This document shows, piece by piece, positions 1 through 43,397 of a DNA stretch of 64,000 bases. The notes beneath the pieces were generated by a model, which was not told where the DNA came from, did no database searches, and was given only the letters and a program-made list of their open reading frames with translations. The translations under genes were made by a program, and so were the position numbers. The DNA comes from Myxococcales bacterium (GTDB taxonomy: Bacteria; Myxococcota_A; Polyangia; Palsa-1104; JAEUJZ01): positions 116,693 through 180,692 of the forward strand of contig JAEUKB010000025.1 in assembly GCA_016794365.1 (NCBI GenBank), given 5' to 3'. Positions within the stretch are counted from its first letter, which is position 1, and each line of letters begins with the position of its first letter.

Positions 1-410
1 CGCGAGACGGTGTGACCAAGCTGGGCGACGGCGAACTGACCGTCCTAGACAACCAGATCAACCAGGGAACGGCGACGCTCCGCTTGAAAGCGGTGTTTGC
101 AAATCCCAAGCGACTGCTGTGGCCCAATCAGTTCGTCAAAGCGCGGCTGCTGCTAAAAACAGAGCCGCGTGCGCTGGTGATTCCTGCGGTGGCGGTGCAG
201 CGCGGTCCGAAAGGAACGTTTGTCTATGTCGTGGCGGAAGATGGTACGGCGGTGACTCGTCCGGTGGAGGTTTCGCTGCTGACCGCTGATCAAGCGGTGC
301 TGGCCAAGGGAGTCTCTGCTGGGGAACAAGTGGTGGTGGAAGGACAGAATCAGCTTCGTCCTGGTGCAAAAGTATCGGCGCGACCGCAAGGAAGTGAGCG
401 CAAGTCATGA
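1..410 (+). CDS. RND efflux membrane-fusion (periplasmic adaptor, HlyD/AcrA/MdtA-like) protein, C-terminal fragment; gene starts upstream of the window
   Basis: ORF 12..410 runs in frame from the window edge. The translation resembles the beta-barrel/membrane-proximal end of adaptor subunits (VIPAVAVQRGPKGTFVYVV...VVEGQNQLRPGAKV). Its stop TGA overlaps the ATG of the downstream RND permease (ATGA coupling at 407-410). Confidence 0.7.
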   Translation, partial: RDGVTKLGDGELTVLDNQINQGTATLRLKAVFANPKRLLWPNQFVKARLLLKTEPRALVIPAVAVQRGPKGTFVYVVAEDGTAVTRPVEVSLLTADQAVLAKGVSAGEQVVVEGQNQLRPGAKVSARPQGSERKS

Positions 411-6732: not shown

Positions 6733-6778
6733 AAATGCCTTGACGGTGCGCGCGTCGGACAGTAACGATTCGCGCCAA

Positions 6779-9323: not shown

Positions 9324-9447
9324 AAACACCTCACAAAGCCTATTGCGGACCCTGGCTGCTGCATCGTCGGTCCTCACGTACTTTTGCGTACGCTCCGGTC
9401 CTCCTCTTTGCTTCCAGGGTTCCTCAGGACGGTTTTGTGAGGTGTTA

Positions 9448-10461: not shown

Positions 10462-10566
10462 CCGGCTGCTTGGTGAACGCTACGTTCGTCGCAGCGGGCA
10501 GGGTTTTGTAAGTTTTGCCATAATGGGCTGGCGCGATCGAAAGGGTGCGACGCGCGACCGGGGGGA

Positions 10567-22745: not shown

Positions 22746-22754
22746 GAGGTCGCC

Positions 22755-25700
22755 ATGAAGAGCGTTGGGCAGTTTCGCAACAAACAAGTCGGCGGCAAAT
22801 ACATCCTTGGCTGGACGCTGTCGGCGTCGCTGTGGATGACGGGCTGTCACAAGCCGCCGTCGCAAGAACCAACGGTTGCTTCGGTGGAAGCCAGCCGCGA
22901 TGGCGCGACGATCACGACGGGCAAGACCCAGCTTCCGATTCAGCGCAGTCAGCGCTTGGTTGCGGGCAGCGTGGTGACGACGCCGCCGGGTGTTCGCTCG
23001 TCGCTGTATCTCGATGCGGGGGCGTGGGTGCTGCTCGATCAGGGCAGCGTGCTCAAGGTGCTCGACAAAGGCATCGAGGTGCAGAGCGGTCGCGCCTGGA
23101 TCGATGCGCGCGTCGGAACCGATGTCCCGGTGATGGCAGCGGGAATTGCTTTGACGGCGCAGCGGGCGGGCCTGGCGGTGACGATGACCGAGGGTGGCGC
23201 CAAGATCTACTGCGCGAGCGGTCAGGTTGGCTGGAAAGGCGCGGGCAAGTCGGGACGGCTGGAGTCCGGCTTGACGCTGCTTGTCTCGGGCGGAGACGCG
23301 AAACAGACGGCGCAGGCGCTGTGGGATGACTTTACGCTGGGACTGGCGGAACCGGGACCGCTGCGGGCGCTGGAACCGGCGGGCGTGGGACAGCTAACGG
23401 CGCGACCTGCGACGGGAGTTGGTACGGCGCGGACGCCGCTGATTGTGCGTGCGCACGACGTGAGCGTGTCGATTGAAGGCGACATGGCGACGACGACGGT
23501 GGAGCAGACGTTCTTTAACCCGCGCTCCGAGTACCTAGAAGGTCTGTACACGGTGCGTCTGCCGGAAGCTGCGATCTTGGAACACTTCGCGGTGGCCGAT
23601 GGGGACGCTGCGCCGCGTCGTGGCTCGGTCCTGCCGATGGATCGTCAGGGCAGCGGCGTGTCGAGCTTTTCCGCGAACCTGGAGTGGGCGGGCTCCGGTC
23701 GCTATCGCGGTCTGATTCGCAACATTGCGCCGGGTAAGGTCAGGAAGGTGGTGCTGCGCTACCGTGAGTGGCTGCCGCACATTCCCTACGCTGACGCCGT
23801 GCGCCGTACCTATGTCTACCCGATGGGACAGAGCGCGCAGATGCAAGCGGGCTCGGTGTCGAACTTGGGAGAGTTTTCGCTGTCGGTGGACGTGGCGCAG
23901 GCGCAGGCAGCGTCGCTTCAGGCCGGGCTCGGTGCGCAGGTCGAAGGCTCGATGGTGACGCTGCGACGCAGTGACTTCAAGCCGACGGCGGACTTTGTGC
24001 TCGATCTGATGGACGGCAAAGAGCGCATCAAAGATCGGCTGGTGGCGTTCCGAGGAGAAGCCGTCGAGGATCAGCGCTATCTGCTGGTGCAGCCGACGCC
24101 AGCGGCGGGTAAGCCAGCCAAGGGTCTTGATGTGGTGCTGCTCGTCGATGTGTCGGCGGGAACGGATGAAGCACGACTGAGCCTGGGCAAGAGCGCGGCG
24201 CAAGCACTGCTCAAGCGACTGACGCCCGAGGATCGGGTCGCGGTGGTGGCGACTTCTCTCGGGGCGGCGACGCTGGGCAGTGAAGCGATGGCCCCGGCGA
24301 CCAAAGAGCGAATCGAGCAGCTCGATGCCCAGCTTGCGAAGCAGACTCCGGGCGGAGCGACGAACCTTCAGCAGGCGTTTCTGCGCGCGGTCGAGCTTCT
24401 GCCGCGTGGGAAAGGCGCGGTGATCTACATTGGCGACGGGCGTCCGACGGTTGGTGCGCTGACCCCGAATGAGCTAAGAGCGCAGCTTCAGCAGCTTGGG
24501 GATCTGCCTCGGTTCTTTGCGGCGGCGGTGGGCAGCGACGCGAATGTGCCGCTGCTGGAGTCGCTGTGTCACTCGGGAACTCGCTCGGGCGTGGTGCGGA
24601 TTGAAGACGCGCCGGATGCGTCGCGGGCGGCGCTGCACCTATTGGAACGGGTGGCGCAGCCGAGCCTTTTGGGCGTCAAGGTAGAGCTGGGCGAAGGCGC
24701 GGATGTGGTCTATCCCGACGAGCCCGTGACGATCGAAAGTGGCGATTCGCTGACGGTGGTGGCCAGGCTGCGCGCCGATCGTCCTCTGCCATCCAAGCTG
24801 GTGCTGCGCGGGCTGCGCGACGGACAGCCGTTTGTCGAGCAGCGCGATCTGACGGTGCGCTCGATCGAAGATGGCGGGGACTTGGCTCGTCGCTGGGCGC
24901 TGTATCGGATGCAAGGTCTGTTGGAGCGTGCGTCGGGCAAAGAAGCGATCTTGGACATCGGCAAGCGCTTTCAGGTGGTGACGCCGTGGACTGCGATCGT
25001 CGTCGCTCCGTCGGGTGGGGAAACGTATCGTCCCTTCGTGGGCGAGCTAGAGGCTGGACAGTTTGTGCCTCCGTCGCTGCGTGGACAGGCTCCACAGGAC
25101 TCGGCGATCGTGCTGGAATCGGGCGTTTCGACGCAGAGCATGCGTCCGGTGAGCATCGGTGAGATGTATGTGCGAGCGCTCAAGTCGCAGAGCAGTGCGG
25201 CGCGGCTGTGTTACGAGCGACGGGCGGCGGGAAATCCGGGCCTGTCGGGTCGCGTCGAGCTGAAGCTGAAGATCGGAATCGATGGGCTGCCCAAGGATGT
25301 CAAGGTCGCGTCTTCGACGCTGCGCAACAAAGAGATCGACGACTGCATCGAGCGCGCGCTGCTGGCGGTGAAGCTGCCGGTGTCTCCCGACGGGAAACCG
25401 CATGATGTGGACTACGCGCTACAGCTCAATCAAAAAGAGCATGACGACGGACCGCAGCGCTGTAGTGCGGCGTCGCGGGCGTATCTGCAAGTGCGCCGAT
25501 CGCTGTGGCGCGAGCGTCTGTCGAGTCATCCCGGCGTCGAGGGTGCGATGACGGTGCTGCGCGAAGCCGAAGCGCGCTGTGAGCTGAAGACCTGGCTGGA
25601 TCGGCGAGCGCTCGTCGATTTGATGCGTGTTCACGTCGGTGGAACCGCGCAGCAGGTCGATCTGTTCCATCGCTTCGACGACAGTGAGTACGCGCAGGAA

Positions 25701-26840
25701 GTTCAGTCGCATCTGCGTCGCGAGATCTTGCGAGCGGTGCGCACGGAAGCGGACATTCGGGCGGCGCAGAGCGGGCTGGCTCTCGACGGTGGAGTCGATG
25801 AAGCGCTGCTGACGCAAGAGCTGAAAAAGACCAAAGGCGTCGCCGAGCAGCTCGCGGTGATTCGTCGCTTTTTGGCGCTGCTACCGGACTCGCTGTCGCT
25901 GAAGCTGAAGCTGCTGGCGCTGCTGGAAGAAGCGAGCGCCGAAAAAGGACTGGCAGCGACGGCCAAGCAAGCGCTGTTTGGGGAAGCGAACCGGCTCATC
26001 GAGTCGCTGCGCGTCGATCCAGGGGCCGATGCTGCGGTTCGTCAGTCCGTCGGTGAGTATCTGATCCGTCGCGGCGAAGGGGCCGAAGGCGCGCGGGCGC
26101 TGTCCGAGATTGTCGAGTTTGCTCCGTTCGATCCGTGGGGACGGCGACGGCTCGGGGATCTGTATCGCGCCCATGGCTTTTTCGACGCTGCGTATCGGGA
26201 ATATCAAGGGCTGAGCTGGCTTTTGCCGCAAGATGACAGCGTGCTGCTTTTGCTGGCGGATGCGGCGGCGGGCGTGGGTCGTACCGACGAAGCGCTGCGA
26301 CTGACCAGTCGGGTGGCGGAAGCGGTGGGCGCGCAGAAGTCGCAGAAAGGGGCTCCGGCGTGGGCGCGCGCGCTGTATGCGGTGCGGTGGGCGCGGCTCT
26401 GCGACGAAGCCCGACGAAAAGGCGATCAGAACCTGCTCGGCCAGCTTGGCGCACGCGGACGTAGCGACGGAATTTCCGGCTACGCAGGCCAGATGCTGGT
26501 GGCGGTGACGTGGTCGCATCCCGACGCGAAGCTTCAGCTCCAGCTGGTTCCACCGGGCAAAGGCAGTGAGCCGCAGCGGGCCAGCATCGCGGGCGGAGAC
26601 GTCGGCATCGAAGCGCAGCGCTACGACAAGGCGCAGTCCGGCGAGTGGCAGCTTCGCGTCATCAAGCCAAGCGTGGCGCTCGGGGCGGGCGAATACAAAG
26701 GCGAGCTGACGGTGCTGCTGTTTGCCGGAACCAAAGAAGAGACGATCCTGCGGCAGCCGATCGCCGTGAGCGCCGGTTTTTCGTCGGTGAAAGAGTTTTC
26801 GCTGCGCGGCAACGTGCTGTCGCCAATTCCCAGCAAGTAG
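22755..26840 (+). CDS. giant multidomain lipoprotein, paralogue of the upstream gene (FecR-like, VIT, vWA, TonB_C-like, TPR)
   Basis: 1361 aa with the same domain order. Lipoprotein signal (LWMTGC). Near-identical blocks shared with the upstream gene (EQTFFNPRSEYLEGLYTVRLPEAAILEHFAV; LVDVSAGTDEARL; EIVEFAPFDPWGRRRLGDLYRAHGFFDAAYREYQGL versus EIVEFAPQDPLARRRLGDLYRAHGLFDEAYRQYETL). Starts 10 bp after the upstream stop. Confidence 0.75.
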   Translation: MKSVGQFRNKQVGGKYILGWTLSASLWMTGCHKPPSQEPTVASVEASRDGATITTGKTQLPIQRSQRLVAGSVVTTPPGVRSSLYLDAGAWVLLDQGSVLKVLDKGIEVQSGRAWIDARVGTDVPVMAAGIALTAQRAGLAVTMTEGGAKIYCASGQVGWKGAGKSGRLESGLTLLVSGGDAKQTAQALWDDFTLGLAEPGPLRALEPAGVGQLTARPATGVGTARTPLIVRAHDVSVSIEGDMATTTVEQTFFNPRSEYLEGLYTVRLPEAAILEHFAVADGDAAPRRGSVLPMDRQGSGVSSFSANLEWAGSGRYRGLIRNIAPGKVRKVVLRYREWLPHIPYADAVRRTYVYPMGQSAQMQAGSVSNLGEFSLSVDVAQAQAASLQAGLGAQVEGSMVTLRRSDFKPTADFVLDLMDGKERIKDRLVAFRGEAVEDQRYLLVQPTPAAGKPAKGLDVVLLVDVSAGTDEARLSLGKSAAQALLKRLTPEDRVAVVATSLGAATLGSEAMAPATKERIEQLDAQLAKQTPGGATNLQQAFLRAVELLPRGKGAVIYIGDGRPTVGALTPNELRAQLQQLGDLPRFFAAAVGSDANVPLLESLCHSGTRSGVVRIEDAPDASRAALHLLERVAQPSLLGVKVELGEGADVVYPDEPVTIESGDSLTVVARLRADRPLPSKLVLRGLRDGQPFVEQRDLTVRSIEDGGDLARRWALYRMQGLLERASGKEAILDIGKRFQVVTPWTAIVVAPSGGETYRPFVGELEAGQFVPPSLRGQAPQDSAIVLESGVSTQSMRPVSIGEMYVRALKSQSSAARLCYERRAAGNPGLSGRVELKLKIGIDGLPKDVKVASSTLRNKEIDDCIERALLAVKLPVSPDGKPHDVDYALQLNQKEHDDGPQRCSAASRAYLQVRRSLWRERLSSHPGVEGAMTVLREAEARCELKTWLDRRALVDLMRVHVGGTAQQVDLFHRFDDSEYAQEVQSHLRREILRAVRTEADIRAAQSGLALDGGVDEALLTQELKKTKGVAEQLAVIRRFLALLPDSLSLKLKLLALLEEASAEKGLAATAKQALFGEANRLIESLRVDPGADAAVRQSVGEYLIRRGEGAEGARALSEIVEFAPFDPWGRRRLGDLYRAHGFFDAAYREYQGLSWLLPQDDSVLLLLADAAAGVGRTDEALRLTSRVAEAVGAQKSQKGAPAWARALYAVRWARLCDEARRKGDQNLLGQLGARGRSDGISGYAGQMLVAVTWSHPDAKLQLQLVPPGKGSEPQRASIAGGDVGIEAQRYDKAQSGEWQLRVIKPSVALGAGEYKGELTVLLFAGTKEETILRQPIAVSAGFSSVKEFSLRGNVLSPIPSK

Positions 26841-32114: not shown

Positions 32115-32684
32115 GAACGTACGCCTCCGATTGCGTAGTGGTTGGATCGCAGGTCGCGCGAACGATGTGAGTCCGACGAGTGCTGCGGGATTGCGGATCG
32201 GGGAGCGAGACTCTGCACGGATGTAAAGCGTAGACGAAGTCGCTTCTTCGTTGGTTCCATGCGGATGCGTTCCTTCGGTCTGTCTCTTCGATCAGCACAC
32301 TCCCAAGCGACGCCGTTCAGGTAGACGCTGCGGTCCTTCTGCGCGCGTGTACTGCACTGTGATGAAAGGGTCCGCAAGGCACTGCGGACATCAATGACAG
32401 AAGGGCTGTAGGGATGCCTTTCGCTGGACCAGACTTCCCCGTTTAGGACTCTGTGAGAGGGGAATCCTTTGGCATTTTCTCGACGAAAAAGAGCTTCTCT
32501 GGCTTCAGATCCCGGTGAACCGTAGCCCAGAGGCAGAGTCGCTTTAGGCTTTCACCCGGCGTCGCAGCGTGCGCGCGAAGCCTGCTCAGCAGACAGTCCG
32601 AGCACCGAAAAATCTGCAAGCCACAAAGTCAGCTAGTCGCAGAAGTTGCTTGGAGTTTTTTTGATCGATTGAGAAACTGACATC

Positions 32685-33845
32685 ATGGTGATTTATGGCC
32701 CTTATCCTCCATCGCCCGGTAGGACTCGGTGGCGCGTGCAGGTCTATGATCCGAAGACGCAGCGGAAGCTGTCTGTCACAGCGGAGTCGCAGGAGGCCGC
32801 GCTGGCCCTGCGCGAGCGACTGGAACATGAAGTGAAGCACGCAGCGCCTCTTTTGGTACACGATGCGATCGCGCAGTACCTGGAAGTGAAGCGCTACGAC
32901 ATCCGCTCTATGCAGCAGGTAGAAGATCTTGGACGGAAGCTCCGTCAGCTCTGTCCGAATGTCCCAGTGTCGTCGGTGACTCCGCAGAAAGCAGAGCAGT
33001 ACTACCTGGAAGCAACCCAGCAAAAGGGGAAGTTTGGTTCGCTGCGTCCGGCGACTCATCATGCGCGGCTGCGACTTGCGAAGGCCCTGTGGGCGTGGCT
33101 GATCCGTCGAGATCTGGCCAAGCACAATCCATGGGAGAAGGTCGAGCCGATTGGGAAAGTGAGCAGCGGAAAGCCTCAGCTCGATGAAGCGGATGCGCGC
33201 AAGCTGGATCGATTCCTGTTCACGCAAGCGGAAGCGGGAGATGAGGGTGCGCTGGCACTGCTTGTGGAACTGTATCTGGGACTGCGCTCATCGGAGGTTC
33301 TGTCTTTGACGGTGGGCGCCTGTCAGGGACAGACTGTCTACGTTCACGGAACGAAGACGAAGAACGCGCGACGGAAGCTGGCGCTGTATGGTCCCGTTGC
33401 GGAGCTGCTGGAAAGACACTGTAGGAATCGACCAGAATCCGAGCGCGTATTTGCAGCGAACCTACCCAAGCAGCCGAGCGCAAACTGGGCCTACAAGCGA
33501 CTGAAAAAGATCTGCGGACAGCTTGGGATTCCTTCCATCTGTCCACACAGCTTGCGCGGGCTACATTCTTCGCTGGCACTGGAAGCAGGAGCAACCACGC
33601 ATCATGTCGCGAAAGCGCTGGGACATGCCAGCTTTGGAACGACCGCGCGACACTATGCAAAGCCAGAGTCGATCGAAGTAGGAAGAGCCCATCGGTTCGT
33701 CGCTGCACTGCATGGTGATGCGCAGCCAAGCGTGGAAGCAGAGGACTCCCTTTCCCGTGCGCTGGCAGTGCTTCCCAAAGAGCTGGCGGCGCAGGTGATG
33801 GCGCAGCTCAAGCAGCGGCGTACATGTTCTGGCGAAGGTATGTGA
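32685..33845 (+). CDS. tyrosine site-specific recombinase (phage integrase family)
   Basis: C-terminal catalytic region with R...H-x-x-R...Y arrangement (LRSSEVLSL...; CPHSLRGLHSSLALEAGATTHHVAKALGHASFGTTARHYA). N-terminal SAM-like/core-binding region. Confidence 0.85.
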   Translation: MVIYGPYPPSPGRTRWRVQVYDPKTQRKLSVTAESQEAALALRERLEHEVKHAAPLLVHDAIAQYLEVKRYDIRSMQQVEDLGRKLRQLCPNVPVSSVTPQKAEQYYLEATQQKGKFGSLRPATHHARLRLAKALWAWLIRRDLAKHNPWEKVEPIGKVSSGKPQLDEADARKLDRFLFTQAEAGDEGALALLVELYLGLRSSEVLSLTVGACQGQTVYVHGTKTKNARRKLALYGPVAELLERHCRNRPESERVFAANLPKQPSANWAYKRLKKICGQLGIPSICPHSLRGLHSSLALEAGATTHHVAKALGHASFGTTARHYAKPESIEVGRAHRFVAALHGDAQPSVEAEDSLSRALAVLPKELAAQVMAQLKQRRTCSGEGM

Positions 33846-33947
33846 TTGGAAACGGAGTTGCGCAGGCTCGCATGCAGACTGCGCTTGGCATTCTCCCCGA
33901 CTTCACCCCGGCGATTGTGCGCGCTGCTACGCGACGGACTCCGGAAC

Positions 33948-34552
33948 AGAACAAGATCCCGGTGAACTATTCCCAATCGATGTGCGTGGGACAGAGCCGC
34001 CACAATCTGACACCACAGCCGCATCACGCGCAGTCGATCCAGTGTGTAGACGCGCTTTCCGTTCTGTTCCTGCCACGCTGACGCAATCACCTTCTCTAGC
34101 GACGGTCCGTCCAGGTGTTCCATCGCGATGTAGTACACGCCATCACTGGTGCTGCCGCTGGTGTAGACGGTGGCCAGGTTGCGATGGGACAGTCGTGCGG
34201 CTGCGCGCGCTTCCTGATGGAATCGCTGCACCACCTTGCCGTCATGTGCGAGGTCCGAGCGCAGGATCTTGAGCGCCACCTCGCGATCCATTCCGATCTG
34301 AAGGGCGCGATAGACGGTTCCCATTCCGCCTTCGCCCAGACGCGCAACGATGGCGAAGCTCTCAATCCGACGGCCAATCAGGGGATCGATCTGGGCGTTC
34401 GGTAGCTCGCTCGCATCGATCAGAATCGCTCCGTCGTGCGGACAGAACAGCTCTCCCGCTGTCTGGCTGGGACGCTTGCAGACTGCACAGACGAGAGCCT
34501 GCGGCCCCAGCTGATTCGGAGAGGGACGTGTTTGCAAACGCTTAGCCACCAC
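33948..34552 (-). pseudogene. Ser/Thr protein kinase gene truncated immediately after the catalytic-loop HRDL motif (5-prime part only: N-terminal Zn-ribbon-like region and kinase subdomains I-VIb)
   Basis: Translation LGEGGMGTVYRA...VALKIL...HRNLATVY...YIAMEHLDG...LSHAHRLGIVHRDL, then non-kinase sequence (VLFRSPSRSS...) that runs to the integrase stop. No DFG, APE or downstream subdomains are present. Confidence 0.7.
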
Positions 34553-34609
34553 CCTGCGACATCATATCGCCTAAGGGAAGCGGCATTCAATGTGCCGTAG
34601 TGATGCGTA

Positions 34610-36538
34610 TTAAGCGGGCGGAGGTGGGACAAGCACCGACGGGGCACTTGGAGCTGCCGGAGGAGTTGGAGCCGCCGGAGGAGCCGGAGCTGCCGGAGGA
34701 GTTGGAGCCGCCGGAGGAGCTGGAATCGCCGGAGGAGCCGGAATCGCCGGAGGAACTGGAACCGACGGAGGAGCCGGAACCGACGGAGGAGCCGGAACCG
34801 CCGGAGGAGCCGGAATCGCCGGAGGAGCTGGAACCGCCGGAGGAGCTGGAACCGCCGGAGGAGTCGGAGCTACTGGTGGAGTTGGCGCAGGCTGCTTCGC
34901 CACAGGCGGTGGGGCAACCGGGACGATCGCTGGCTCTTTGACCGTTGGGGCCGTCGATGGAGCCGTCGATGGAGCCGCTGGGGCAGTCGATGGAGCTGCT
35001 GGGGCCGTCGATGGAGCCGCTGGAGCCGTCGATGGAGTCGCTGGGGCCTTGCGAATGACCGTCGGACGAGCCGGTGGAATCAGCTTGAACTCGACGCGAC
35101 GGTTCTGCGCGCGTCCGGCTGCTTGGTTGTTGTCCGCGACGGGCCGCGTCGAGCCATAGCCCACCGATTGCAGTCGGGTCGGGTCGATCCCCTTGGTGAT
35201 GAGGTACGCCTTGACAGCGTCGGCGCGCTGCTGCGACAGCGTCAGGTTGTCGCTTGGATTGCCGACGTTATCGGTGTGTCCTTGGACTTCCAGGCGCACC
35301 GTCGGCACTTCCGCGAGTGCAGCCACCGCCTGATCGAGCACCGCGAACGAGCTGGGCACCAGATCCGCCTTGTTGGGCAGGAACTGAACGCCTTCGATCT
35401 TCTTATCGACAAAGCGTGCCAGGCTCGACGGGACTTCGTCGGGGCAGCCGTCCTGATCTTGGTAGTTGTTGACTGTTTCGGGCTGCTGCGCGCACTTGTC
35501 GAGTCGATCGACGATGCCATCGCCGTCGCTGTCGATATCGGGGCAGCCTTGGTTGATCTGTGGGCCGATTTCCGTCGGACACTTGTCCAAGCGATCGACG
35601 ACGCCATCGCTGTCGGCATCGACATCGGGGCAGCCACCGTTTTCCATCGGGCCAGCTTGCTGCGGACACTTGTCGAGTCGATCGACGATGCTGTCTCCGT
35701 CGCCGTCACGATCGGGGCAGCCGCCATTCTCCGTCGGGCCTTTGTCGCTGGGACAGCGATCTTCTTTGTCGGGCACGCCGTCTTGGTCGATGTCGAGAGG
35801 CTTGGGTGGCTCGGCGGGCTTGTCGCTGCCGTAGCCGAATCGTCCGTAGACGCTGCCGAGGGCTTCGTAGTCGGGCGTGAAGCTGGGCGTCCGAATCTCG
35901 GGAACCAGCACAATGCGTCCGTCGAAGCGCAGGCCGACCCAGCGATTCAGATCGAAGCGCATACCAGCACCGGCGTGGAAGGATGCAAGCACCTCGCTGC
36001 GCAGGGGCAAGCCGGGATCGGGTCGGACGCCGATCGCGCCACCACCGGCGAGGATGAACGGCTGGAAGCGATCATTTCCGCCAAACGGCCAGCGGAACAT
36101 CAGGTGTCCGCGTCCGGTGTAGACGAGAACCTGCGCTGGTTTTTCGGCAAGCTGCGTCGGCATTGCGACGAACTCACCTTCGAGCAGGAAGTGTCGGCTG
36201 AGCCCGTATCCGATGCGCGCACCGAGTGCTGCGCTGTGACGGAGATCGCTGCCCGGTGCGGCGTAGTCGCTGCGACCGATGGCTGCCGTCGAAGAAAAGA
36301 AGTGCGCTCCGACGATGAGCGAGACTTCAAGCGGTCGATCTGCGATGGACACCGGGGCAGCGGGCGCCGCTTGGGCTGCTTTGGCCTCGGTGGACTGTTG
36401 CTCTTCGGCCCTGACCAGGCCTTCAGACGAAGCTCCGAGGAGACAGACTGCCACCGTCGGAACCGCTGCTTGCTTCCACAGCGGAAGCTGCCCGCGTGTC
36501 CGAATCCCAAGTCGTCTTTGCGCCGCACGTCGCTGCAT
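34610..36538 (-). CDS. OmpA-family outer-membrane protein with beta-barrel-like N-terminus, thrombospondin type 3 repeats, OmpA peptidoglycan-binding domain and Pro/Ala-rich C-terminal tail
   Basis: Start at the internal Met (MQRRAAQRRLG...AVCLLGASS signal). TSP3 repeats (DQDGVPDKEDRCP...DRDGDGDSIVDRLDKCP...DVDADSDGVVDRLDKCP...DIDSDGDGIVDRLDKC). OmpA-C motif (LEVQGHTDNVGNPSDNLTLSQQRADAVKAYL...NRRVEFKLI). The tail (PAAPSTA)n / (PAPPAVPAPPAIPAPPA)n is encoded by a tandem repeat at about 34620-34940. Confidence 0.8.
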   Translation of the reverse strand: MQRRAAQRRLGIRTRGQLPLWKQAAVPTVAVCLLGASSEGLVRAEEQQSTEAKAAQAAPAAPVSIADRPLEVSLIVGAHFFSSTAAIGRSDYAAPGSDLRHSAALGARIGYGLSRHFLLEGEFVAMPTQLAEKPAQVLVYTGRGHLMFRWPFGGNDRFQPFILAGGGAIGVRPDPGLPLRSEVLASFHAGAGMRFDLNRWVGLRFDGRIVLVPEIRTPSFTPDYEALGSVYGRFGYGSDKPAEPPKPLDIDQDGVPDKEDRCPSDKGPTENGGCPDRDGDGDSIVDRLDKCPQQAGPMENGGCPDVDADSDGVVDRLDKCPTEIGPQINQGCPDIDSDGDGIVDRLDKCAQQPETVNNYQDQDGCPDEVPSSLARFVDKKIEGVQFLPNKADLVPSSFAVLDQAVAALAEVPTVRLEVQGHTDNVGNPSDNLTLSQQRADAVKAYLITKGIDPTRLQSVGYGSTRPVADNNQAAGRAQNRRVEFKLIPPARPTVIRKAPATPSTAPAAPSTAPAAPSTAPAAPSTAPSTAPTVKEPAIVPVAPPPVAKQPAPTPPVAPTPPAVPAPPAVPAPPAIPAPPAVPAPPSVPAPPSVPVPPAIPAPPAIPAPPAAPTPPAAPAPPAAPTPPAAPSAPSVLVPPPPA

Positions 36539-36708
36539 GTACGTAAACTCCGAACCAGGCCAATGAAAGTGGGCGCATCCTAGCAGCCGTCTAGATGTGT
36601 GTAAACGCGCTCGTGCCGGGGAAATTACGACCAGCGCTTGCGGCTGAACTGGGCGAAATCCGGTGAAAATGGGCCAAATACGGCCAAAGCAGGCGAGCTG
36701 GGCGGGCT

Positions 36709-37569
36709 TTACTTGATCGGGATGGTCAAGCCTAGCTGTAGGCTCATCGGGGCTACGCTGATGGGGAAGCAGACCTCGCCGTCGAGCTTGTCGCAGTCGG
36801 AGCGTCGTGAGAGCACGATCGGCGTGATGATGGCGGCGGCGACTCCGCTGGCACCGACGGCGGCAAGTGTCCACACCCACCAGCGCGAATACCAGCGCTT
36901 TTCGGTCTTGAAGACGGCTTCTTCGCGGCGCTTTTGCTCGGGCTGGATTTCCAAGATAAGGTCGCGGTCGTACTGCTCACCAGCGACGGTCGCGATGCTC
37001 AGCGTCTGTTCAAAGTAGCCGATGCGACGGACGCGGACGACGTGCGGACCGGGACGCAGCTCCAGCTCCAGCGGGGTTTCTCCTCGGAGATCTTCATCGA
37101 CGAAGACTTGGGCACCGGGCACATCCGTCGCGACCTTGAGGATGGCGAGCAGCGGCGTAAGCTCGACTTCGACGGCAACCATTCGCCCTTGGATCGCAGT
37201 GAAGTCTGACGAAAACGTGGAATAGCCACGCCGAGAGAGCACCAGCTTGTGTGGTCCGGGCTCGATCGCGGTGCGCGGCGGTAGCGGAGTGATTCCGATC
37301 AGCTTTCCATCGAGTCGAACCTCTGCTTTGGGTGGCGCACCGAGGAGCGCGAAGGCAGTCTCGTTGGGCTTGGCTTCGGTCGGAATGGGCGCGCTCGATC
37401 GGGTCGCTGGCTGTTCGGCTGCGGGACTGGGCGACGACTCACCGGACTGCGCAAAGGCTGGCCGGACGGGCCAAAGCAGTGACAGCGCACAAGCCGCGAG
37501 GAGTCCAGCGTGGTGTCCAGACCGCCCGCGTGCGATCGTCTGCTCTGTCCGACCTGAGCGAGCGTGCAT
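36709..37569 (-). CDS. PEGA-domain protein with N-terminal signal and C-terminal transmembrane helix
   Basis: Two PEGA-like repeats (VRLDGKLIGITPL...IEPGPHKLVLSRRGYSTF; VFVDEDLRGETPLELELRPGPHVVRVRRIGYFE). C-terminal hydrophobic WWVWTLAAVGASGVAAAIITPIVL. Confidence 0.6.
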   Translation of the reverse strand: MHARSGRTEQTIARGRSGHHAGLLAACALSLLWPVRPAFAQSGESSPSPAAEQPATRSSAPIPTEAKPNETAFALLGAPPKAEVRLDGKLIGITPLPPRTAIEPGPHKLVLSRRGYSTFSSDFTAIQGRMVAVEVELTPLLAILKVATDVPGAQVFVDEDLRGETPLELELRPGPHVVRVRRIGYFEQTLSIATVAGEQYDRDLILEIQPEQKRREEAVFKTEKRWYSRWWVWTLAAVGASGVAAAIITPIVLSRRSDCDKLDGEVCFPISVAPMSLQLGLTIPIK

Positions 37570-37854: not shown

Positions 37855-38020
37855 GTAGATCGATCCCTCGCTTTTGCTGTCTGTGAAGGCAAGTAATCTT
37901 GCGCGCATAGGAGCCGTTTCCCGCTTCCATCCTCTCGAAAAATGGGTCTATAATCCTGGCCGAGGGGATGAACCAGACGTGCTTGCTGTGTGGCTCGGCC
38001 AGGCTCGTGCAACAGACAGA

Positions 38021-38434
38021 ATGCTACGGCTGCTGATCCTTGCATGCTGCCTTAGCATGGGCTGTGCAACGCGTCCGTGGCGGATGCAGATGACGCTAGC
38101 CACCGACGCAAACAACAACTCTCCTGTCTTGATTTCAGTGGTGCTTCCCAAGAGCCAACCGCTGTTCAAGAAGCTGCTGGATTTGACCGCAAAGCAGTGG
38201 TTTACACAGCGTGAACAGCTGCTGCGCGATCATCGTCGCGATCTGGAAGAGACGTACTTCGAGTTCATTCCGGGTCAGCAAGTTCCTGAGATCAATCGCA
38301 AAGTTGCGAGCAGTGTCAGCCAAGGGATTCTGTTTGTGAACTATCAGACGCCCGGCTCGCATCGCTACACCTTCGACGTAAACCAAGTGCTCAAGATCAG
38401 CTTTGCGCAGCAGAGTGTGAACCTGAGCCAGTAA
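38021..38434 (+). CDS. small lipoprotein at the head of the type VI secretion cluster, candidate TssJ
   Basis: Lipoprotein-type signal MLRLLILACCLSMGC from the internal ATG at 38021. About 137 aa, immediately upstream of tssK, the usual tssJ position. No direct sequence recognition of TssJ. Confidence 0.45.
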   Translation: MLRLLILACCLSMGCATRPWRMQMTLATDANNNSPVLISVVLPKSQPLFKKLLDLTAKQWFTQREQLLRDHRRDLEETYFEFIPGQQVPEINRKVASSVSQGILFVNYQTPGSHRYTFDVNQVLKISFAQQSVNLSQ

Positions 38435-38452
38435 TGGGAAGTAGGAATCGGA

Positions 38453-39793
38453 ATGCCGAGCGCGCATGATCTTCCTCCGCAGATTCAATGGCATGAAGGA
38501 ATGCTTCTGGCCCCGCAGCACTTTCAGCAGATGGTGCAGCGAACGGAAAAGCTCCTTCACTACCATGTGAGTCTGGGGCTTCCCTATCAGTTCGGAGTGA
38601 CGCGACTTCGTTATGAATCGACGCAGCTCTTTACCGGAACGCTGCGTGTGACAGAGCTGGAAGCCGTGCTTCCCGATGGCCTGGTGGTGTCCTTCCGAAC
38701 GGGGCCCGCTGCGGAGCTTCAGGTCGATCTGAAATCCCATGCAGAGAGCGCAAAACACGCGCCGATTCCTATCTATCTGGTGGTTCCGATCGAACGGACA
38801 GGGGGCAGCAAAGGCGAAGGAGATCTGGGTCGATTTCTTTCGATTCCCGGCGATGAAGTCGATGACGAGGTAAGCGGTGGTCGTCCGCTGCGGATTCCTC
38901 GTCTAAAACCAAGGCTGCGCTTGATTGCGGGGTCAGAGCCGCCACCGCCGCGCTTTGTGGCGCTTCCGCTGCTGGCCGTGATCTACAAAAACGGTGCGTT
39001 TGTTCCTGCGGACTACATCCCGCCGCTGATTCGGGTGGAAGTAGACTCTGCGCTGGGCGAGCTGTGCGCGCAAGTCAGCAGCCTGATTCGCGCCAAAGCG
39101 ACGTATCTGCTGGAAGTGATTCGATCTCCTGCGATTACGACCAAGCCACAAGCGATCGAAGAAAACCGCAGACTGCTGTCGCAGCTGGTCATGAACTTGC
39201 CTCCCTTTGAGGCACTTTTGGCGACGGGAATCAGCCATCCTTATGCGCTCTATGTTGCGCTGACAGCGGTGGCCGGAAGTGTGGCAGGCGTTGGCAATCA
39301 GCTCATGCCGCCGGTCTTTCCTGCGTACGATCACCTGAACCTTCGGCGATCCTTTGCGGAGGTCATTCAGTTTGTGAATCAGTCTCTCAGCGACGGAATT
39401 TCCGAAGCGTTTACTGCGCTTCCGTTCCGCAATGAAAACAATCTGTTTGCACTTCAGTTTGAGCGTGAGTGGACGCGCCGCACGGTGGTTGTGGGCTTCA
39501 AAGGGGCGCCAGGGGCAACGGATCAGCAGATTACAGAGTGGGTGACGAGCAGTCTGATCGGAACAGCCAGTCGCTTCAAAGTGCTGCGTGAGCGACGAGT
39601 GCTGGGAGCGAGTCGGACCCCCATTGATCGGTTGGAAGGTCTGGTGGCAACGCGCGGAATGCTGCTGTTTCAGCTTCAGATAAACCCAGAGTTTATTGTT
39701 CCAGGCGAGCCGCTTGTGATTGGAAACTCTGTGGAAAAGCCACCGGGAATTCGTCCGGCAGAGGCCTCTCTATATGTCGCAAACAAAGAGTAG
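38453..39793 (+). CDS. tssK: type VI secretion system baseplate subunit TssK
   Basis: N-terminus PPQIQWHEGMLLAPQHFQQ is the conserved TssK start; 446 aa; position between the lipoprotein and tssL. Confidence 0.85.
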   Translation: MPSAHDLPPQIQWHEGMLLAPQHFQQMVQRTEKLLHYHVSLGLPYQFGVTRLRYESTQLFTGTLRVTELEAVLPDGLVVSFRTGPAAELQVDLKSHAESAKHAPIPIYLVVPIERTGGSKGEGDLGRFLSIPGDEVDDEVSGGRPLRIPRLKPRLRLIAGSEPPPPRFVALPLLAVIYKNGAFVPADYIPPLIRVEVDSALGELCAQVSSLIRAKATYLLEVIRSPAITTKPQAIEENRRLLSQLVMNLPPFEALLATGISHPYALYVALTAVAGSVAGVGNQLMPPVFPAYDHLNLRRSFAEVIQFVNQSLSDGISEAFTALPFRNENNLFALQFEREWTRRTVVVGFKGAPGATDQQITEWVTSSLIGTASRFKVLRERRVLGASRTPIDRLEGLVATRGMLLFQLQINPEFIVPGEPLVIGNSVEKPPGIRPAEASLYVANKE

Positions 39794-39864
39794 GAAGGCT
39801 CTGCAAGCTGGCGACTGCGCGAACCTCGGCGCGATCCACATCTTTACAGTGACGAGGGCGCAAG

Positions 39865-40773
39865 ATGGCGAGTGAGTCCTCAGATCAGCTCTTTTTGGTG
39901 GACTATTTCCGCGAGTTCTACGCAGCGGTGCTGCAACACCGCATGCAGATCGAGCGCTCGCAGCTTCCGCCATCCGAAGAGGACAGCATTGAGATTCGCG
40001 AAGCCGATATCTTGGCGGAAGAAAAGATTCCGGGGGCAGAGCAGTCGCAGATCGCACCTGACATTGTGCAAGCACTCCTGATCGAGCTGATGGAATCGCA
40101 GCAGCAAGCGATTCAGCGACGCGGAGATCCGCGCGAACAGAAGCGCTTTCGTGAAATCCAGTACGTCATGTCAGCGATGGCTGATGAAGTCATGCTGAGC
40201 ATTGAGTGGATCGGAAAAGAATACTGGAGCACCCACCTGCTCGAAGAGCGTCTGTTTGGAACGCACGATGCAGGAACGCGCTTTTTTGATCACCTAGACT
40301 CTCTGCTTCAGAACAGAGACGCGACGCGGGCCGATGTGCTAGCGGTGTATCTGCTGGCGGTGTCGCTGGGTTTCCGGGGCAAGCATCGCACCGTGAACAG
40401 CGCCGCGCAGATTGCACACTATCGAAACCAAGCGTACGTCACGCTGTTTCAGCGCAGTCCTGCCCTTCCCGAAAGCTCTCCGCTGTTTCCGCAAGCCTAC
40501 GCACATACGCTGGATGGACAGTCGCCAAGCTGGCTGCCGCAGCTTCGTCCGTGGCTCCTGTCGTTGATCGGTGTCGCGGTGTTCTATCTGTTGGTTGCAC
40601 ATGTGATCTGGGATCGCCGATCGACCTCCGTTGGGAATCGCTTGGAAGAGATTCTTCAGCACAAAGACAGTCCGACATTGAACACACCGAGTAAGTCGGT
40701 CGGCAGCCAAATGGAGCCGAAATCAGAGACTGCAACTGCGACCGCAAGCAGCGCATCTGTAGGAAAGAAATAG
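39865..40773 (+). CDS. tssL: type VI secretion system membrane subunit TssL (DotU family)
   Basis: About 300 aa with a cytoplasmic helical domain and a single C-terminal TM helix (WLLSLIGVAVFYLLVAHVIW); located after tssK. Confidence 0.65.
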   Translation: MASESSDQLFLVDYFREFYAAVLQHRMQIERSQLPPSEEDSIEIREADILAEEKIPGAEQSQIAPDIVQALLIELMESQQQAIQRRGDPREQKRFREIQYVMSAMADEVMLSIEWIGKEYWSTHLLEERLFGTHDAGTRFFDHLDSLLQNRDATRADVLAVYLLAVSLGFRGKHRTVNSAAQIAHYRNQAYVTLFQRSPALPESSPLFPQAYAHTLDGQSPSWLPQLRPWLLSLIGVAVFYLLVAHVIWDRRSTSVGNRLEEILQHKDSPTLNTPSKSVGSQMEPKSETATATASSASVGKK

Positions 40774-40848
40774 GGTTTTTTCGACGATGGTTCGCTGTGT
40801 TGGGAAGTGTTAGAGTGAGTCGTTACAGACGCCTGTCCTAGGGACAGG

Positions 40849-41928
40849 GTGGATGGGGGAACTGTGCCAAACCGCGTGCTCGGCTGGCTGATACTCTGTG
40901 TATCGGTAGTGCTGCTGTGTGCAGCTCCAGCTCTGTGTCAGGAAGAGAGTGCCGCGACCTATGAGGAAGAGGGCGCTCGGCTGTTCCTGAGCAAGAGCTA
41001 TGAGGGAGCGATCAAGCAGTTTACCCAAGCGTATCGGCTGGAGCCGAAGCCTCAGTATCTGTTTAACATCGGTCAGTCCTATCGCAAGCTGGGTCTGGCT
41101 GCGGAAGCAACGGAGTACTATCAGCGCTATCTGCATGATGAACAGAAGGTCGATCCGACCATCTATGCAGATCTGACATCCTACATTGATCAGTACTACG
41201 CATCCCAAGAGCGCGGCGGCAGTCGTCCCAAGGTAAGTGGTGAAGCAGCAGAGCCCGCACCGCTATTGGCAGCAGAGGAAATTGCCGACGCAGAAGAGCT
41301 GATCGCACAGTTTGTTCGGGATCATCGCGCAGGCAATCAAGCGGTCGCCAACGAGATCATGGATCAGCTCAAACAGGTGCTGCTGGTTCGTCGTGATCCG
41401 ATCCTGATGTATCACATTGCGAATGGCTTCGATCAGGTCAAAAAGCGCAAGGACGCGCTGGATTACTATCGTCGCTTTGTCGCAGTAGAGACAGCAGATC
41501 CACGACTTCGCCGTCGAGCATTTGAGCGGATTGCGCTGCTTACGCCTGCTCCTCCTGGTCAAAAATATCTGTGGCCAAGCTTGGCGCTGGCGATTCCAGG
41601 ACTCGCTGGTGTGCTGACCGGAGTCGGTCTTGCGGTTCAGTCTGGTGACAACTTTCAGCAGTTTCTTAGCGAAGCAGATGAACAGAAGAAGCGGGAGCTG
41701 CGCGACAAAGGAGTCGGTCTGTCGATCGGATCGGTGACCTCCTATGCCGTCGGTGGTGCCTTGCTCGCTGGCGCAGGAGCCTTTGCGATTGTGGCACTCA
41801 AAAAGGGAGTCCGTCAAAGCTCGGAAGAGAAGCGGACAGAGCCCACACGCGCACCAAAGAGCACCGTGACCGGATCTCTCTTGCCGCTTCCGGGCGGCTT
41901 GGGTCTGTCAATGGGGGGGAACTTTTAA
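40849..41928 (+). CDS. TPR-repeat membrane protein (non-core gene inserted in the type VI secretion cluster)
   Basis: N-terminal hydrophobic signal/anchor, TPR-like helices (GAIKQFTQAYRLEPKPQYLFNIGQSYRKLGLAAEATEYYQRYL) and two C-terminal TM segments. Confidence 0.55.
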   Translation: MDGGTVPNRVLGWLILCVSVVLLCAAPALCQEESAATYEEEGARLFLSKSYEGAIKQFTQAYRLEPKPQYLFNIGQSYRKLGLAAEATEYYQRYLHDEQKVDPTIYADLTSYIDQYYASQERGGSRPKVSGEAAEPAPLLAAEEIADAEELIAQFVRDHRAGNQAVANEIMDQLKQVLLVRRDPILMYHIANGFDQVKKRKDALDYYRRFVAVETADPRLRRRAFERIALLTPAPPGQKYLWPSLALAIPGLAGVLTGVGLAVQSGDNFQQFLSEADEQKKRELRDKGVGLSIGSVTSYAVGGALLAGAGAFAIVALKKGVRQSSEEKRTEPTRAPKSTVTGSLLPLPGGLGLSMGGNF

Positions 41929-43373
41929 TGCCTAAGACTACGCTTCTTTCTGCCTTGTTCGCGGTGGGATTGCTGGCTGGCTCTGGCTGCACGCTCACCA
42001 TGAATTATCAGCAGTGTACGCAAGACAGTGACTGCACTGCAGCGGATGGAACGCCGGGCTACTGCTCGTCGGATCAGCTCTGTCTGCCGAACACTCCGCT
42101 CGACAATCTGTGTACGATTACGATTCCTGATGCACCGTCTCCCAATGCGGTCCACTTGGGGGCTCTTTTGGATCTGCGTGACAGAAACGGAAGACTCGCA
42201 GAAGCGCATCGCTTGCTCGCGCTGAAGCTCGGGGTCAAGCAGATCAATGAGCTGGTGCAGCTTGATGGATCACGTCCGCTGGCAATCGATGTCTGCAATG
42301 TCGGAACATCGGCGATCGATGCAGACAATGCGACCAAGATCCTGATCGAGCAGCGCAATGTCGTTGCGATCATCGGACCGAACACTGCGTCGGCTGCGAC
42401 CAACATGATCGGTCGGATCAAAGCGGCTGGTGTGCCCACGATTTCGCCCGCGATCATGGACAGCGGAATCGCAGATGCGGCCAGCCAGGGTCTGTTTTAT
42501 CGCTTGGCTCCCGTCGAAAGAGAGCAGGGACTACAGCTTGTCCGCGAGTTGGTGACTCTTTCTGGTGGAAAGAGCACTTCGCAGCTGGGACTTTTGTCTG
42601 TCACCGATTCCTATGGTGAAAACATTCGGCGGAAATTTACGCCAGAGTGGCAGCGGCGCGATCCGAACAACAAGACCGATCGATTCTTTTCGTACAAAGA
42701 CAACGATGCCAACTTGCTCAGTGTCACGACCAAGACGCTGCTGGATGCCAAGCCCAGCTTTGTGGTGCTGATTCCGGGATCAAACAGTCATCAGGTGATT
42801 GGTGGCTTCGCAGATCTTCCGTTTGATCCAAAAAATCCTGGCTCATTCGAGAGTACGACTCAGATTCTGTCCGCTTCAAGTGGCCGTACTGGAGAGCTGA
42901 TCCGTCTGGCGCGTACTGGTGATGACAAGACGAAGAATCATCTGTCGCGCATTACCGGAGTCGCTCCGCTGAGCTTCATTGATAGTCAGGAAGGGGCTGA
43001 CTTTAAGTCGAGCTTTACCGCTACCAATCCGGGTCTGGCGCTGGAAGACGACTTCATGGTGGGCTACACCTACGACGCGCTGTTTGTGCTGGGTGCGGCC
43101 TCTGCCACATTCAAAGGAGCGAGCCGACCGGACCAGATTCTGTCTGTGCTGCGACGGCTCAATGGCAATGCCAACTCTCTGTCTCTGACTCCGCGACTGT
43201 TTAACGAAACGGTTCAGAAGCTGGCGCAGCAGCCGACTGATCCGTTCACTCTGCTCGGTGTTACAGGTGCGATTCGCTTTCAGACGGACGGTGGCCGAGA
43301 TCCGGTCCTGCTGGAGCGCTGGAAGATCGACGTAGCCAGCGGAGTGTATGTGAACACTCCGGCCAACATGTAA
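41928..43373 (+). CDS. periplasmic-binding-protein type I (Leu/Ile/Val-binding/receptor ligand-binding family) lipoprotein (non-core gene in the type VI secretion cluster)
   Basis: Lipoprotein signal (LLAGSGC). PBP1-like blocks (VVAIIGPNTASAATNMIGRIKAAGVPTISPA; FYRLAPVEREQG; KPSFVVLIPGSNS). Its start overlaps the upstream stop. Confidence 0.55.
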   Translation: MPKTTLLSALFAVGLLAGSGCTLTMNYQQCTQDSDCTAADGTPGYCSSDQLCLPNTPLDNLCTITIPDAPSPNAVHLGALLDLRDRNGRLAEAHRLLALKLGVKQINELVQLDGSRPLAIDVCNVGTSAIDADNATKILIEQRNVVAIIGPNTASAATNMIGRIKAAGVPTISPAIMDSGIADAASQGLFYRLAPVEREQGLQLVRELVTLSGGKSTSQLGLLSVTDSYGENIRRKFTPEWQRRDPNNKTDRFFSYKDNDANLLSVTTKTLLDAKPSFVVLIPGSNSHQVIGGFADLPFDPKNPGSFESTTQILSASSGRTGELIRLARTGDDKTKNHLSRITGVAPLSFIDSQEGADFKSSFTATNPGLALEDDFMVGYTYDALFVLGAASATFKGASRPDQILSVLRRLNGNANSLSLTPRLFNETVQKLAQQPTDPFTLLGVTGAIRFQTDGGRDPVLLERWKIDVASGVYVNTPANM

Positions 43374-43397
43374 CGCAGGGCCCATGGGAATCGTGAC

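Follow-up and report, generated by a model that had tools for sequence, protein, structure and literature searches.

Truncated Kinase and Integrase

The stretch of Myxococcales DNA considered here, 64 kb in length and hereafter called the window, contains an intact tyrosine integrase gene that lies next to the 5′ fragment of a Hanks-type Ser/Thr kinase gene on the opposite strand (Table 1). We propose that the integrase is very probably the sole gene of a minimal, 1,447-bp site-specific integrative element lodged in the V-H-R-D-L catalytic-loop codons of the kinase, that the integrase family to which it belongs uses this motif as an attachment (att) site in many kinase paralogues, and that the window holds a degenerate site from which the kinase C-lobe has been lost.

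An earlier note on this DNA had described a tyrosine integrase beside a minus-strand kinase truncated after HRDL, and the profile searches bear this out. The minus-strand open reading frame (ORF) at 33653–34552 matches the Pfam Pkinase profile with E = 3.8e-18, the match being limited to positions 3–124 of 263 and ending at the HRD catalytic loop; a complete PF00069 catalytic domain, with DFG and APE segments, is not encoded. A kinase hidden Markov model (HMM) built from 49 homologues, in whose numbering HRD occupies positions 142–144, matches the window from 34399 to 33953 at HMM positions 5–145, and in a six-frame scan of the window it detected no kinase C-lobe. Since there is no C-lobe in any frame, the truncation is not a simple frameshift with the 3′ half adjacent, which is the outcome that the earlier note had set against its own proposal. 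Immediately past ...LGIVHRDL, this frame continues as VLFRSPS..., antisense first to the 3′ flank of the integrase and then to the 3′ end of its gene. The break, which we place at about 33953/33954, is separated from the integrase stop codon by 108 bp and is close to the position near 33948 given previously; the final kinase-derived bases are the 14-mer GTTCACCGGGATCT. No tRNA gene was found in the window, which rules out a tRNA as the integration target there, and the break lies within kinase codons, so that the target is protein-coding, as had been supposed.

Relatives of the window's kinase or integrase, largely metagenome contigs, are designated below by L-numbers (loci) and P-numbers (entries). 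Full-domain orthologues of the window kinase are found in L096 and P0244. The native setting of the gene, downstream of a cluster of type VI secretion system (T6SS), PEGA, and OmpA/TSP3 genes, is conserved in Polyangia.

Against PF00589, the integrase scores 64.3 bits (E = 1.6e-17; cutoff, 27.1), and it matches the phrog_1 “integrase” profile with E = 6.4e-37. Residues R201, K224, H288, R291, H314, and Y324 are invariant in an alignment of 25 family members, and their motif context (GLRSSE, HSLRG, LGH, HY) suggests that they fill the canonical R-K-H-R-H/W-Y roles. Among the NCBIfam equivalogs, no curated cutoff was reached; the top match, to TIGR02224 XerC, scored 49 bits against a cutoff of 335, and the remaining matches were likewise far under theirs, which places the protein outside the XerC/XerD and integron-integrase groups. 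The PDB contains no sequence relative of it. Integrases from a phage collection are at most 32% identical to it over 26–43% of the protein. A tblastn search of this collection at E ≤ 1e-5, in which the presence of Mx8 or Mx9 was not confirmed, gave no myxophage match, the best matches being to Firmicutes phages at about 30% in the catalytic domain. The only ORF of the element with a family match is the tyrosine recombinase, and the element is accordingly neither an insertion sequence nor a DDE transposon.

Core Repeat and Element Anatomy

The 14-mer that ends the kinase fragment occurs again on the same strand, 164 bp upstream of the integrase start codon. The window contains it exactly twice, where chance would give 0.01 copies, and the core codons are those for V-H-R-D-L. 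The second copy therefore delimits a definable unit of 1,447 bp from core to core (32507–33953, with the second core copy at 33954–33967), which has the integrase as its sole gene and is laid out as core, 164-bp P arm, integrase, 108-bp P′ arm, and core. This is the composition of a site-specific integrative element, namely an integrase gene with an identical short core at both ends. Family-wide, the minimal repeat is CACCGSGA.

The direct repeat of the junction sequence, the search for which the earlier note had recommended, thus exists. Its proposal of an integrative-element junction inside the kinase, with the element to the left of the junction, stands; the large island that it envisaged does not, the repeat being just 1,447 bp away. 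Nor do attL and attR lie within 33846–33950, where they had been placed, as this interval is the P′ arm and the crossover core is at 33954–33967.

The two boxes in the P′ arm, P′a, are variants of the two conserved boxes of the integrase family. This arm is common to the related locus L015 for about 70 bp, after which L015 has two cargo genes; at the position of the left core, L015 reads ATTCACCGGGATCT. The attP of the window element is predicted to read ...GGGCTACG GTTCACCGGGATCT TGTTCTGTTCC... (GGGCTACG-GTTCACCGGGATCT-TGTTCTGTTCCGG), the predicted excision scar is GGGAATA-GTTCACCGGGATCT-GAAGCCAGAGAAG, and the predicted restored kinase is ...GTTCACCGGGATCTGAAGCCNGARAAY....

Collinear copies of the window structure, 98.8–99.3% identical, occur in three other samples; close matches are found in SRR14932623/25/27, SRR24315805, and ERZ27282941. 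The contigs P0001 and P0002 were considered as an attP or as an alternative context of the window element and proved to be merely collinear copies. We also considered the core as a target-site duplication made on insertion. The core is, however, found inside attP-like junctions of elements as well, and therefore it is a shared crossover site and not an insertion-made duplication.

Table 1. Features of the integrase–kinase junction region (window coordinates).
Feature	Position	Strand	Basis
Putative remnant of an older family element (P′b); the kinase frame reads KPEKLFFVEKMPKDSPLTES*, not kinase	32145–32506	−	Box CGTCGAGAAA at the core offset of attP-like loci; absent from L012
Left core GTTCACCGGGATCT, attP-like junction (P arm, core, P′ arm)	32507–32520	−	Second exact copy
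P arm, 164 bp, left core to integrase start codon	32521–32684	+	Kept in L007, L008, and L015 up to the core, divergent past the core
Tyrosine recombinase/integrase gene, 386 amino acids (aa), intact	32685–33845	+	PF00589, phrog_1, invariant catalytic residues, dN/dS
P′ arm (P′a), core to integrase stop codon; holds CCGTCGCG and GGGGAGAATGCC	33846–33953	−	Junction-flank alignment
Right core GTTCACCGGGATCT, attL-type junction (kinase, core, P′ arm)	33954–33967	−	One of two exact copies
5′ fragment of Hanks-type Ser/Thr kinase gene: Cys-rich N-terminal segment plus N-lobe through ...AHRLGIVHRD(L)	33954–34552	−	Pkinase, kinase HMM, synteny

Association of the Integrase Family with HRD Codons

A metagenome scan with the integrase alignment as the query yielded 80 loci whose integrases are 35–82% identical to that of the window; assemblies of wastewater or activated sludge appear to be the origin of most. 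The spacing of the core was counted with the motif CAYMGNGA on the opposite strand, in the 55 loci with enough upstream sequence. HRD codons lie 136–235 nt upstream of the integrase, on the opposite strand, in 28 of these 55 loci and in 27 of the 39 at 45% identity or above; the controls gave 3/55 for the other strand and 1/44 for another distance. The sequence past the HRD codons consists of intact C-lobes of different kinases or of the conserved element arm. Full C-lobes on the minus strand, starting at HMM positions 139–142, lie 146–176 bp upstream of the integrase in 12 loci and 219 bp upstream in L099, and two further loci have partial C-lobes ended by the contig start. Downstream of the integrase, minus-strand N-lobes that end at HMM positions 143–150 are found at a distance of 69–213 bp in seven loci and after 1.9–2.7 kb of cargo in five, L015 among them. 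Family members have from none to three small cargo genes, located past the 3′ end of the integrase and before the N-side core.

A large share of the contigs (L097–L176) have their first base 15–300 bp upstream of the integrase start, many of them at 150–300 bp, which is about where the element ends. Assemblers stop at repeats or polymorphic junctions, and these contig starts hint at multiple copies, or at mixed occupied and empty alleles, within samples.

Given that Myxococcota have very many kinase genes and many integrases, some adjacency of the two is expected by chance, and one might therefore take the window kinase for an ordinary pseudogene, produced by frameshift, deletion, or assembly artefact, beside an unrelated integrase. 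However, the break occurs in the same codons in dozens of unrelated loci at a fixed spacing to the integrase, the C-lobe is missing in every frame, and the exact 14-bp repeat belongs to a structure recovered at about 99% in three independent samples. With these facts in hand, we regard a pseudogene of this kind as extremely improbable.

Probable Movement between Kinases and Restoration of the Frame in Silico

The kinases beside the family integrases are different genes with different architectures, and the same integrase is found in different targets. The integrases of L113 and L114 are 99% identical and the adjacent C-halves 41% identical; the corresponding values are 98% and 47% for L105 and L109, and 95% and 45% for L145 and L149.

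The element lies between the two halves of one kinase in L098, as it does in L114/L117. Removal in silico across the 8-bp repeat CACCGSGA (CACCGGGA / CACCGCGA) takes out 3,983 bp in L098 and 3,906 bp in L114 and restores in-frame kinases of 155 + 699 aa and 171 + 382 aa, respectively. With a slash at the join, the rejoined L098 kinase reads ...YIHGEGVV/HRDLKPSNVFW...DFGL... and that of L114 reads ...AAHDADVI/HRDFKPDNVLIGG...DFGL.... L097 (771–3337) has the N-half, the cargo (a DUF2325 gene, unrelated to DUF2252, and a siderophore-interacting-protein-like gene), and the integrase in common with L098, and has a second integrase, 37% identical, in place of the C-half. This locus shows directly two elements in tandem at one site.

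Occupied and Empty Alleles of the Window Kinase

Homologues of the window's N-fragment, at 55–100% identity, are mostly short proteins broken at the same HRD codons, and the broken orthologues have at least seven different, unrelated tails. Synteny with the orthologues in L010, L011, L012, L018, and L019 ends at window positions 33954–33971; in L010, L011, L018, and L019, where it holds in the order T6SS, PEGA, OmpA/TSP3, and kinase N-half, it ends at 33958–33971. L015, which is of the same species, has an N-half that is 100% identical and the same two junctions as the window, with LysR and DJ-1/PfpI genes as the cargo between the N-side core and the integrase. In L012, a 92% orthologue, an unrelated 6.95 kb stands in place of window positions 32145–33953 (1.8 kb), and its homology to the window picks up again at 32144, 30 bp short of a DUF1800-like operon.

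An intact kinase or empty site in related genomes, which had been suggested as a check, is found in L096. Here, the kinase has the Cys-rich N-terminus, a full catalytic domain, and a C-terminal transmembrane segment, its C-half carries HRDLKPENVLLIEDEEDGEQAK..., and it is followed by DUF2252. The first 1,079 bp of L096 are 100.000% identical to those of L018, in which the kinase is broken, and the two diverge exactly after GTTCACAGGG. The unoccupied target, attB, is seen in relatives only and not for the window copy.

In L181 (a 167-kb contig, at 8177–10645), the kinase halves are split by a lone DUF6765 gene, with no integrase and with the 10-bp repeat GTTCACAGGG at the flanks; it is an integrase-less derivative, or mini-element. 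In one Polyangia metagenome-assembled genome, the N-half and the C-half are on separate contigs, each of more than 100 kb. The DUF6765 gene seen in L181 also stands after the broken N-half in L010, L013, L018, and L019, and after the whole kinase in L011. A DUF6765–PLDc_2–AsnS cluster was considered as the native downstream neighbour of the kinase and rejected because DUF6765 is inserted in L181 and because L096, L181, and L182 show the native DUF2252, an arrangement into which L011 (N-half, C-half, DUF6765) does not fit. In L010, at 10640–10690, four tandem copies of GGAATGCACGC are found right after the broken kinase and before the DUF6765 gene.

A truncated kinase with no adjacent integrase, which the earlier note would have counted against integration, is formally what L010, L012, L013, and L018 present. 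We do not read these loci as showing that integration is absent; rather, the kinase HRD site is a recombination hot spot with varied occupants.

Left Junction and Extent of the Element

The sequence beyond the left core begins HRDLKPEKLFFVEK... and is a conserved element arm, with the family box CGTCGAGAAA at 32476–32485 and a weaker match to the second family box. The offset of the box from the core equals that in the attP-like loci L008, L120, L133, L134, L142, L144, and L148. Seven related contigs have such attP-like junctions, with conserved boxes, in which the core upstream of the integrase is followed by the arm and not by kinase; the consensus of the arm is core, about 20 nt, TYCCGTCGAGAAA, 10–20 nt, and GGGGAAAAGGTGTGAAAAAC. 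An arm of this type also abuts kinase N-halves, for example, in the tail of P0129, an orthologue of the window kinase. Therefore, it is the P′ arm, and the seven contigs show attP-like P–core–P′ junctions, either circular or tandem. A circularity check of the contigs with attP-type junctions revealed no terminal overlaps.

The missing 3′ half of the kinase had been expected to mark the other boundary of the element, and the other repeat adjoins the conserved arm, not kinase. The left flank, HRDLKPEKLFF..., was considered as the start of a kinase C-half and rejected, as it has the P′ box and stops after 24 codons. We read the order in the window as kinase N-half, core, P′a, integrase, P, core, P′b, and unrelated DNA. 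When the window element is removed in silico, with a join across the repeat, the product is ...IVHRDLKPEKLFFVEKMPKDSPLTES*, a 223-aa stump without a C-lobe, and excision does not rebuild a functional gene at this locus.

Could the integrase be the right edge of a large island that extends leftward, with the DUF1800-like/DUF1501 operon, the ricin lipoprotein, and the VIT/vWA genes as cargo and with the kinase 3′ half and attR outside the window? The kinase C-lobe is absent from the window, as is the native downstream cluster of DUF2252, radical-SAM, and kinase-PPPase genes (present in L096, L181, L182, L020, and L017), the genome with the kinase halves on separate large contigs would be compatible with such an island, and P′b at the left core could end an older, larger element. 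Against this, the core repeat encloses the integrase within 1,447 bp, and L012 has the DUF1800-like operon with an unrelated 7 kb before it in place of the window's 1.8 kb, homology starting shortly before the operon. The flank contains, nearest first, the DUF1800-like operon (common to L012), a ricin/TSP3 protein, and two giant ORFs, and further to the left an acyl-CoA ligase, an aspartokinase, a PP2C, EutB, and two AcrB pumps; of these, the aspartokinase, EutB, the AcrB pumps, and the acyl-CoA ligase look like core genes. In the 32 kb to the left of the element, there is no second integrase and no kinase fragment or C-half. GC content and skew, the discontinuity of which had been proposed as a further check, give no usable step at the junction and no clear break across 1–32500, so that no compositional island boundary could be placed. 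Because of this lack of a second integrase, kinase fragment, or clear compositional step, and the core genes there, a single island of more than 32 kb is unlikely, and the cargo proposed in the earlier note has no support. We think that the C-lobe was more probably lost through a rearrangement or deletion that started from the att site or from recombination between copies of the element.

Selection on the Integrase and the Kinase Fragments

Between the window and L015, the integrase has a synonymous divergence (dS) of 0.16 and a ratio of nonsynonymous to synonymous divergence (dN/dS) of 0.13; against its relatives, dN/dS is 0.09–0.13. The truncated N-half, with the insertion common to both loci, has dS = 0.11 and dN/dS = 0.03. 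For the N-halves of L019 and L013, which have another junction type in common, dS = 0.21 and dN/dS = 0.02, and for the separated C-halves of L020 and L017, dN/dS = 0.09. The purifying selection on the integrase argues for its continued activity. It was unexpected that the kinase fragments are also under purifying selection, even between loci with the same insertion; possible explanations are retained function, repeated restoration of the allele, or recombination with intact alleles. The window insertion is old and its site degenerate.

Purifying selection on the N-half, the integrase, and the separated C-halves alike (dN/dS 0.02–0.13) would also be in keeping with a reversible genetic switch, akin to “active lysogeny” or developmental excision, in which the kinase is turned off and on by integration and excision or by inversion between attL and a distant attR. 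The restoration of the frame by precise excision in relatives and the existence of occupied and intact alleles with 100% identical flanks would fit such a switch as well. Nevertheless, excision in the window yields just the stump, no regulator or excisionase is present, and near-identical integrases in many unrelated kinases are a better fit to selfish spread. We consider a switch distinctly improbable.

Observations That Weigh against the Proposal

Several points weigh against our proposal of a small, motif-targeting integrative element. All of the recombination activity is deduced from sequence, and copy number per genome is not readable from metagenome contigs. Neither an attP made of the window's own P and P′a arms nor a circular form was found, the three closest contigs being collinear with the window, and there is no excisionase gene within the 1,447 bp. 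With the kinase C-lobe missing, the window copy is not demonstrable as a simple insertion, and what suggests a tandem remnant at 32145–32506 is a 10-bp box and a weaker similarity. Furthermore, the junction tails of L010, L018, and L019 do not have the family boxes, and a second integrase family, about 35% identical to the window's integrase, is found at the same kinase site in the opposite orientation. Therefore, not every break at the site is due to the window family.

The L182 and L020 integrases, both of this second family, share 58% identity. That of L182 (1262–3323) is in the sense orientation and ends 56 bp before the C-half; in L020 (10–855; 9850–10010), about 9 kb separate an integrase homologue from the C-half downstream of it. 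About 20 nt before the junction, beside the C-half, there is an inverted box, TTTCTCGACGG. L019 and L020 were considered as a clean attL/attR pair and set aside, as they have no convincing shared core past CAC..AAG and as L020, like L182, is of the second family. At 3069–5573, L020 has a second, unrelated multidomain kinase that starts abruptly at ...DQ/PANVMLTAGGEVKLLDFG, with an inverted box, TTTTTCGACGG, about 25 nt upstream and an integrase homologue 2.2 kb upstream; it is probably another HRD-site insertion.

Proposed Mechanism

We propose that the tyrosine integrase would conservatively recombine an attP that mimics ...CAC CGN GAY NTN AAG CC... with kinase genes at that same sequence. 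The strands would be exchanged inside a stretch of about 8 bp, putatively CACCGSGA, and the half-sites on either side would be equivalent to the G-I/V-V/I and x-K-P codons; several attP copies appear to mimic these codons, e.g., CACCGTGACGTGAAGCC in L133. Integration would duplicate the core at both ends and split the kinase between its N-lobe and C-lobe, and with no replacement C-half supplied, the kinase would be inactive until excision. In the window, a tandem or nested integration may have been followed by a deletion or rearrangement. The family that would act in this way has integrases that are 35–100% identical and comes from Myxococcota metagenomes, mostly of activated sludge.

It is tempting to go further and to see in these integrases a motif-homing class, for which the G-I/V-V/I-H-R-D-x-K-P codons of the expanded myxobacterial kinases serve as a multi-copy att site. 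All of the insertions share one codon phase, and copies in different kinases could therefore recombine so as to fuse an N-lobe in frame to the C-lobe of another kinase, together with the intervening chromosome segments, and so as to switch kinases reversibly. If this were the case, the elements would drive kinome and genome plasticity, and the dN/dS values of 0.02–0.09 would mean that the halves are repeatedly rejoined or are functional when split. We hold this extension to be doubtful.

Comparison with Known Elements

Integrases normally land in tRNA genes or in the ends of single conserved genes. The site-specific integrative element is a known category; the family described here departs from gene-interrupting elements and from gene-end-specific integrases in the multi-copy motif as the target, the mid-gene position with no restoration of the gene, the size of 1.4–4 kb, and the near-identical copies in different paralogues. 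A full-text literature search, whose incomplete coverage makes this weak evidence, gave no description of integrases that target kinase genes.

Elements that interrupt genes include skin in sigK of B. subtilis, the nifD element of Anabaena with XisA, Listeria φ10403S in comK, and the streptococcal SpyCIM1 in mutL. As in these, an element with a site-specific recombinase lies inside a coding sequence with a short core at both ends, and excision, in silico in L098 and L114, rebuilds the ORF. Each of those elements has one target gene, they are large (tens of kb if prophage-derived), and their regulated excision has been demonstrated. In contrast, the family described here is 1.4–4 kb in size and has multiple, paralogous targets, and the window gene is not rebuildable. 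The dusA-specific integrases and the guaA- or other gene-specific islands are also tyrosine-integrase systems with protein-coding targets, and, as in our case, attB is in a conserved coding stretch and not in a tRNA, and attP has a mimic of the target. However, these islands insert at the end of a single-copy gene and replace the displaced end, so that the gene is functional, whereas the kinase family inserts mid-gene at the catalytic loop of a multi-copy target and brings no replacement C-terminus. The Mx8 IntP and Mx9 Int proteins of myxophages are tyrosine integrases of the same phylum as that of the window; they target tRNA genes and differ from it in this respect.

Inteins, group I/II introns, and homing endonucleases follow a like evolutionary logic, in that a conserved coding motif guarantees a landing site. 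Their chemistry is different, as inteins and introns splice at the RNA or protein level and preserve gene function, whereas the kinase element inactivates the gene. Eukaryotic Cryptons and small bacterial integrative mobilizable or cis-mobilizable elements have a tyrosine recombinase as their only gene, like the window element, and L181 is an int-less, att-flanked derivative here. The likeness is one of gene content, and we know of no element of these types with specificity for kinase HRD codons.

The bacterial lineage with the most kinase genes is that of the hosts of the window element. The family appears to recognise DNA that encodes a highly conserved motif of a protein superfamily, so that each genome would offer it dozens to hundreds of landing sites, none of them indispensable on its own. 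Should this be confirmed, it would account for the recurrence of kinase pseudogenes and of rearrangement breakpoints in the genomes of myxobacteria and would provide a mechanism for the pruning or shuffling of signalling repertoires. It would also provide very small integration modules (1.4 kb, one protein) with a predictable target of about 20–26 bp, which would be useful for the genetics of Myxococcota. In annotation, a truncated kinase plus an integrase would be one element and not two unrelated features. The window copy is a degenerate example, and the interest lies in the behaviour of the family.

Neighbouring Genes

To the right of the kinase, the proline-rich C-terminal part of the OmpA/TSP3 gene (34610–36880, minus strand) contains an 18-bp period in 13 copies (window 34587–34928), and the gene also has three 87-bp thrombospondin-type-3 repeat units (window 35493–35753). 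Directly to the right of the PEGA–OmpA–kinase block, at approximately 38000–47500, are type VI secretion genes, which synteny with L010 and L011 relates to VasE, DotU, and IcmF; this neighbourhood is kept across the Polyangia loci examined.

On the far left, two tandem full-length efflux pump genes of the AcrB/AcrD/AcrF family (window 407–6732) have ORFs that overlap by 4 bp. They are followed by EutB (6740–8140), for which no normal-sized EutC partner is obvious, and then by an ORF with matches to collagen-repeat profiles. The two adjacent giant ORFs (18072–26840, plus strand; 1557 and 1361 aa), which the earlier note took for VIT/vWA paralogues, have a GC content of 0.63–0.67, compared with 0.56–0.61 in their surroundings, and a GC skew of 0.12–0.20, clearly above that of the surroundings.

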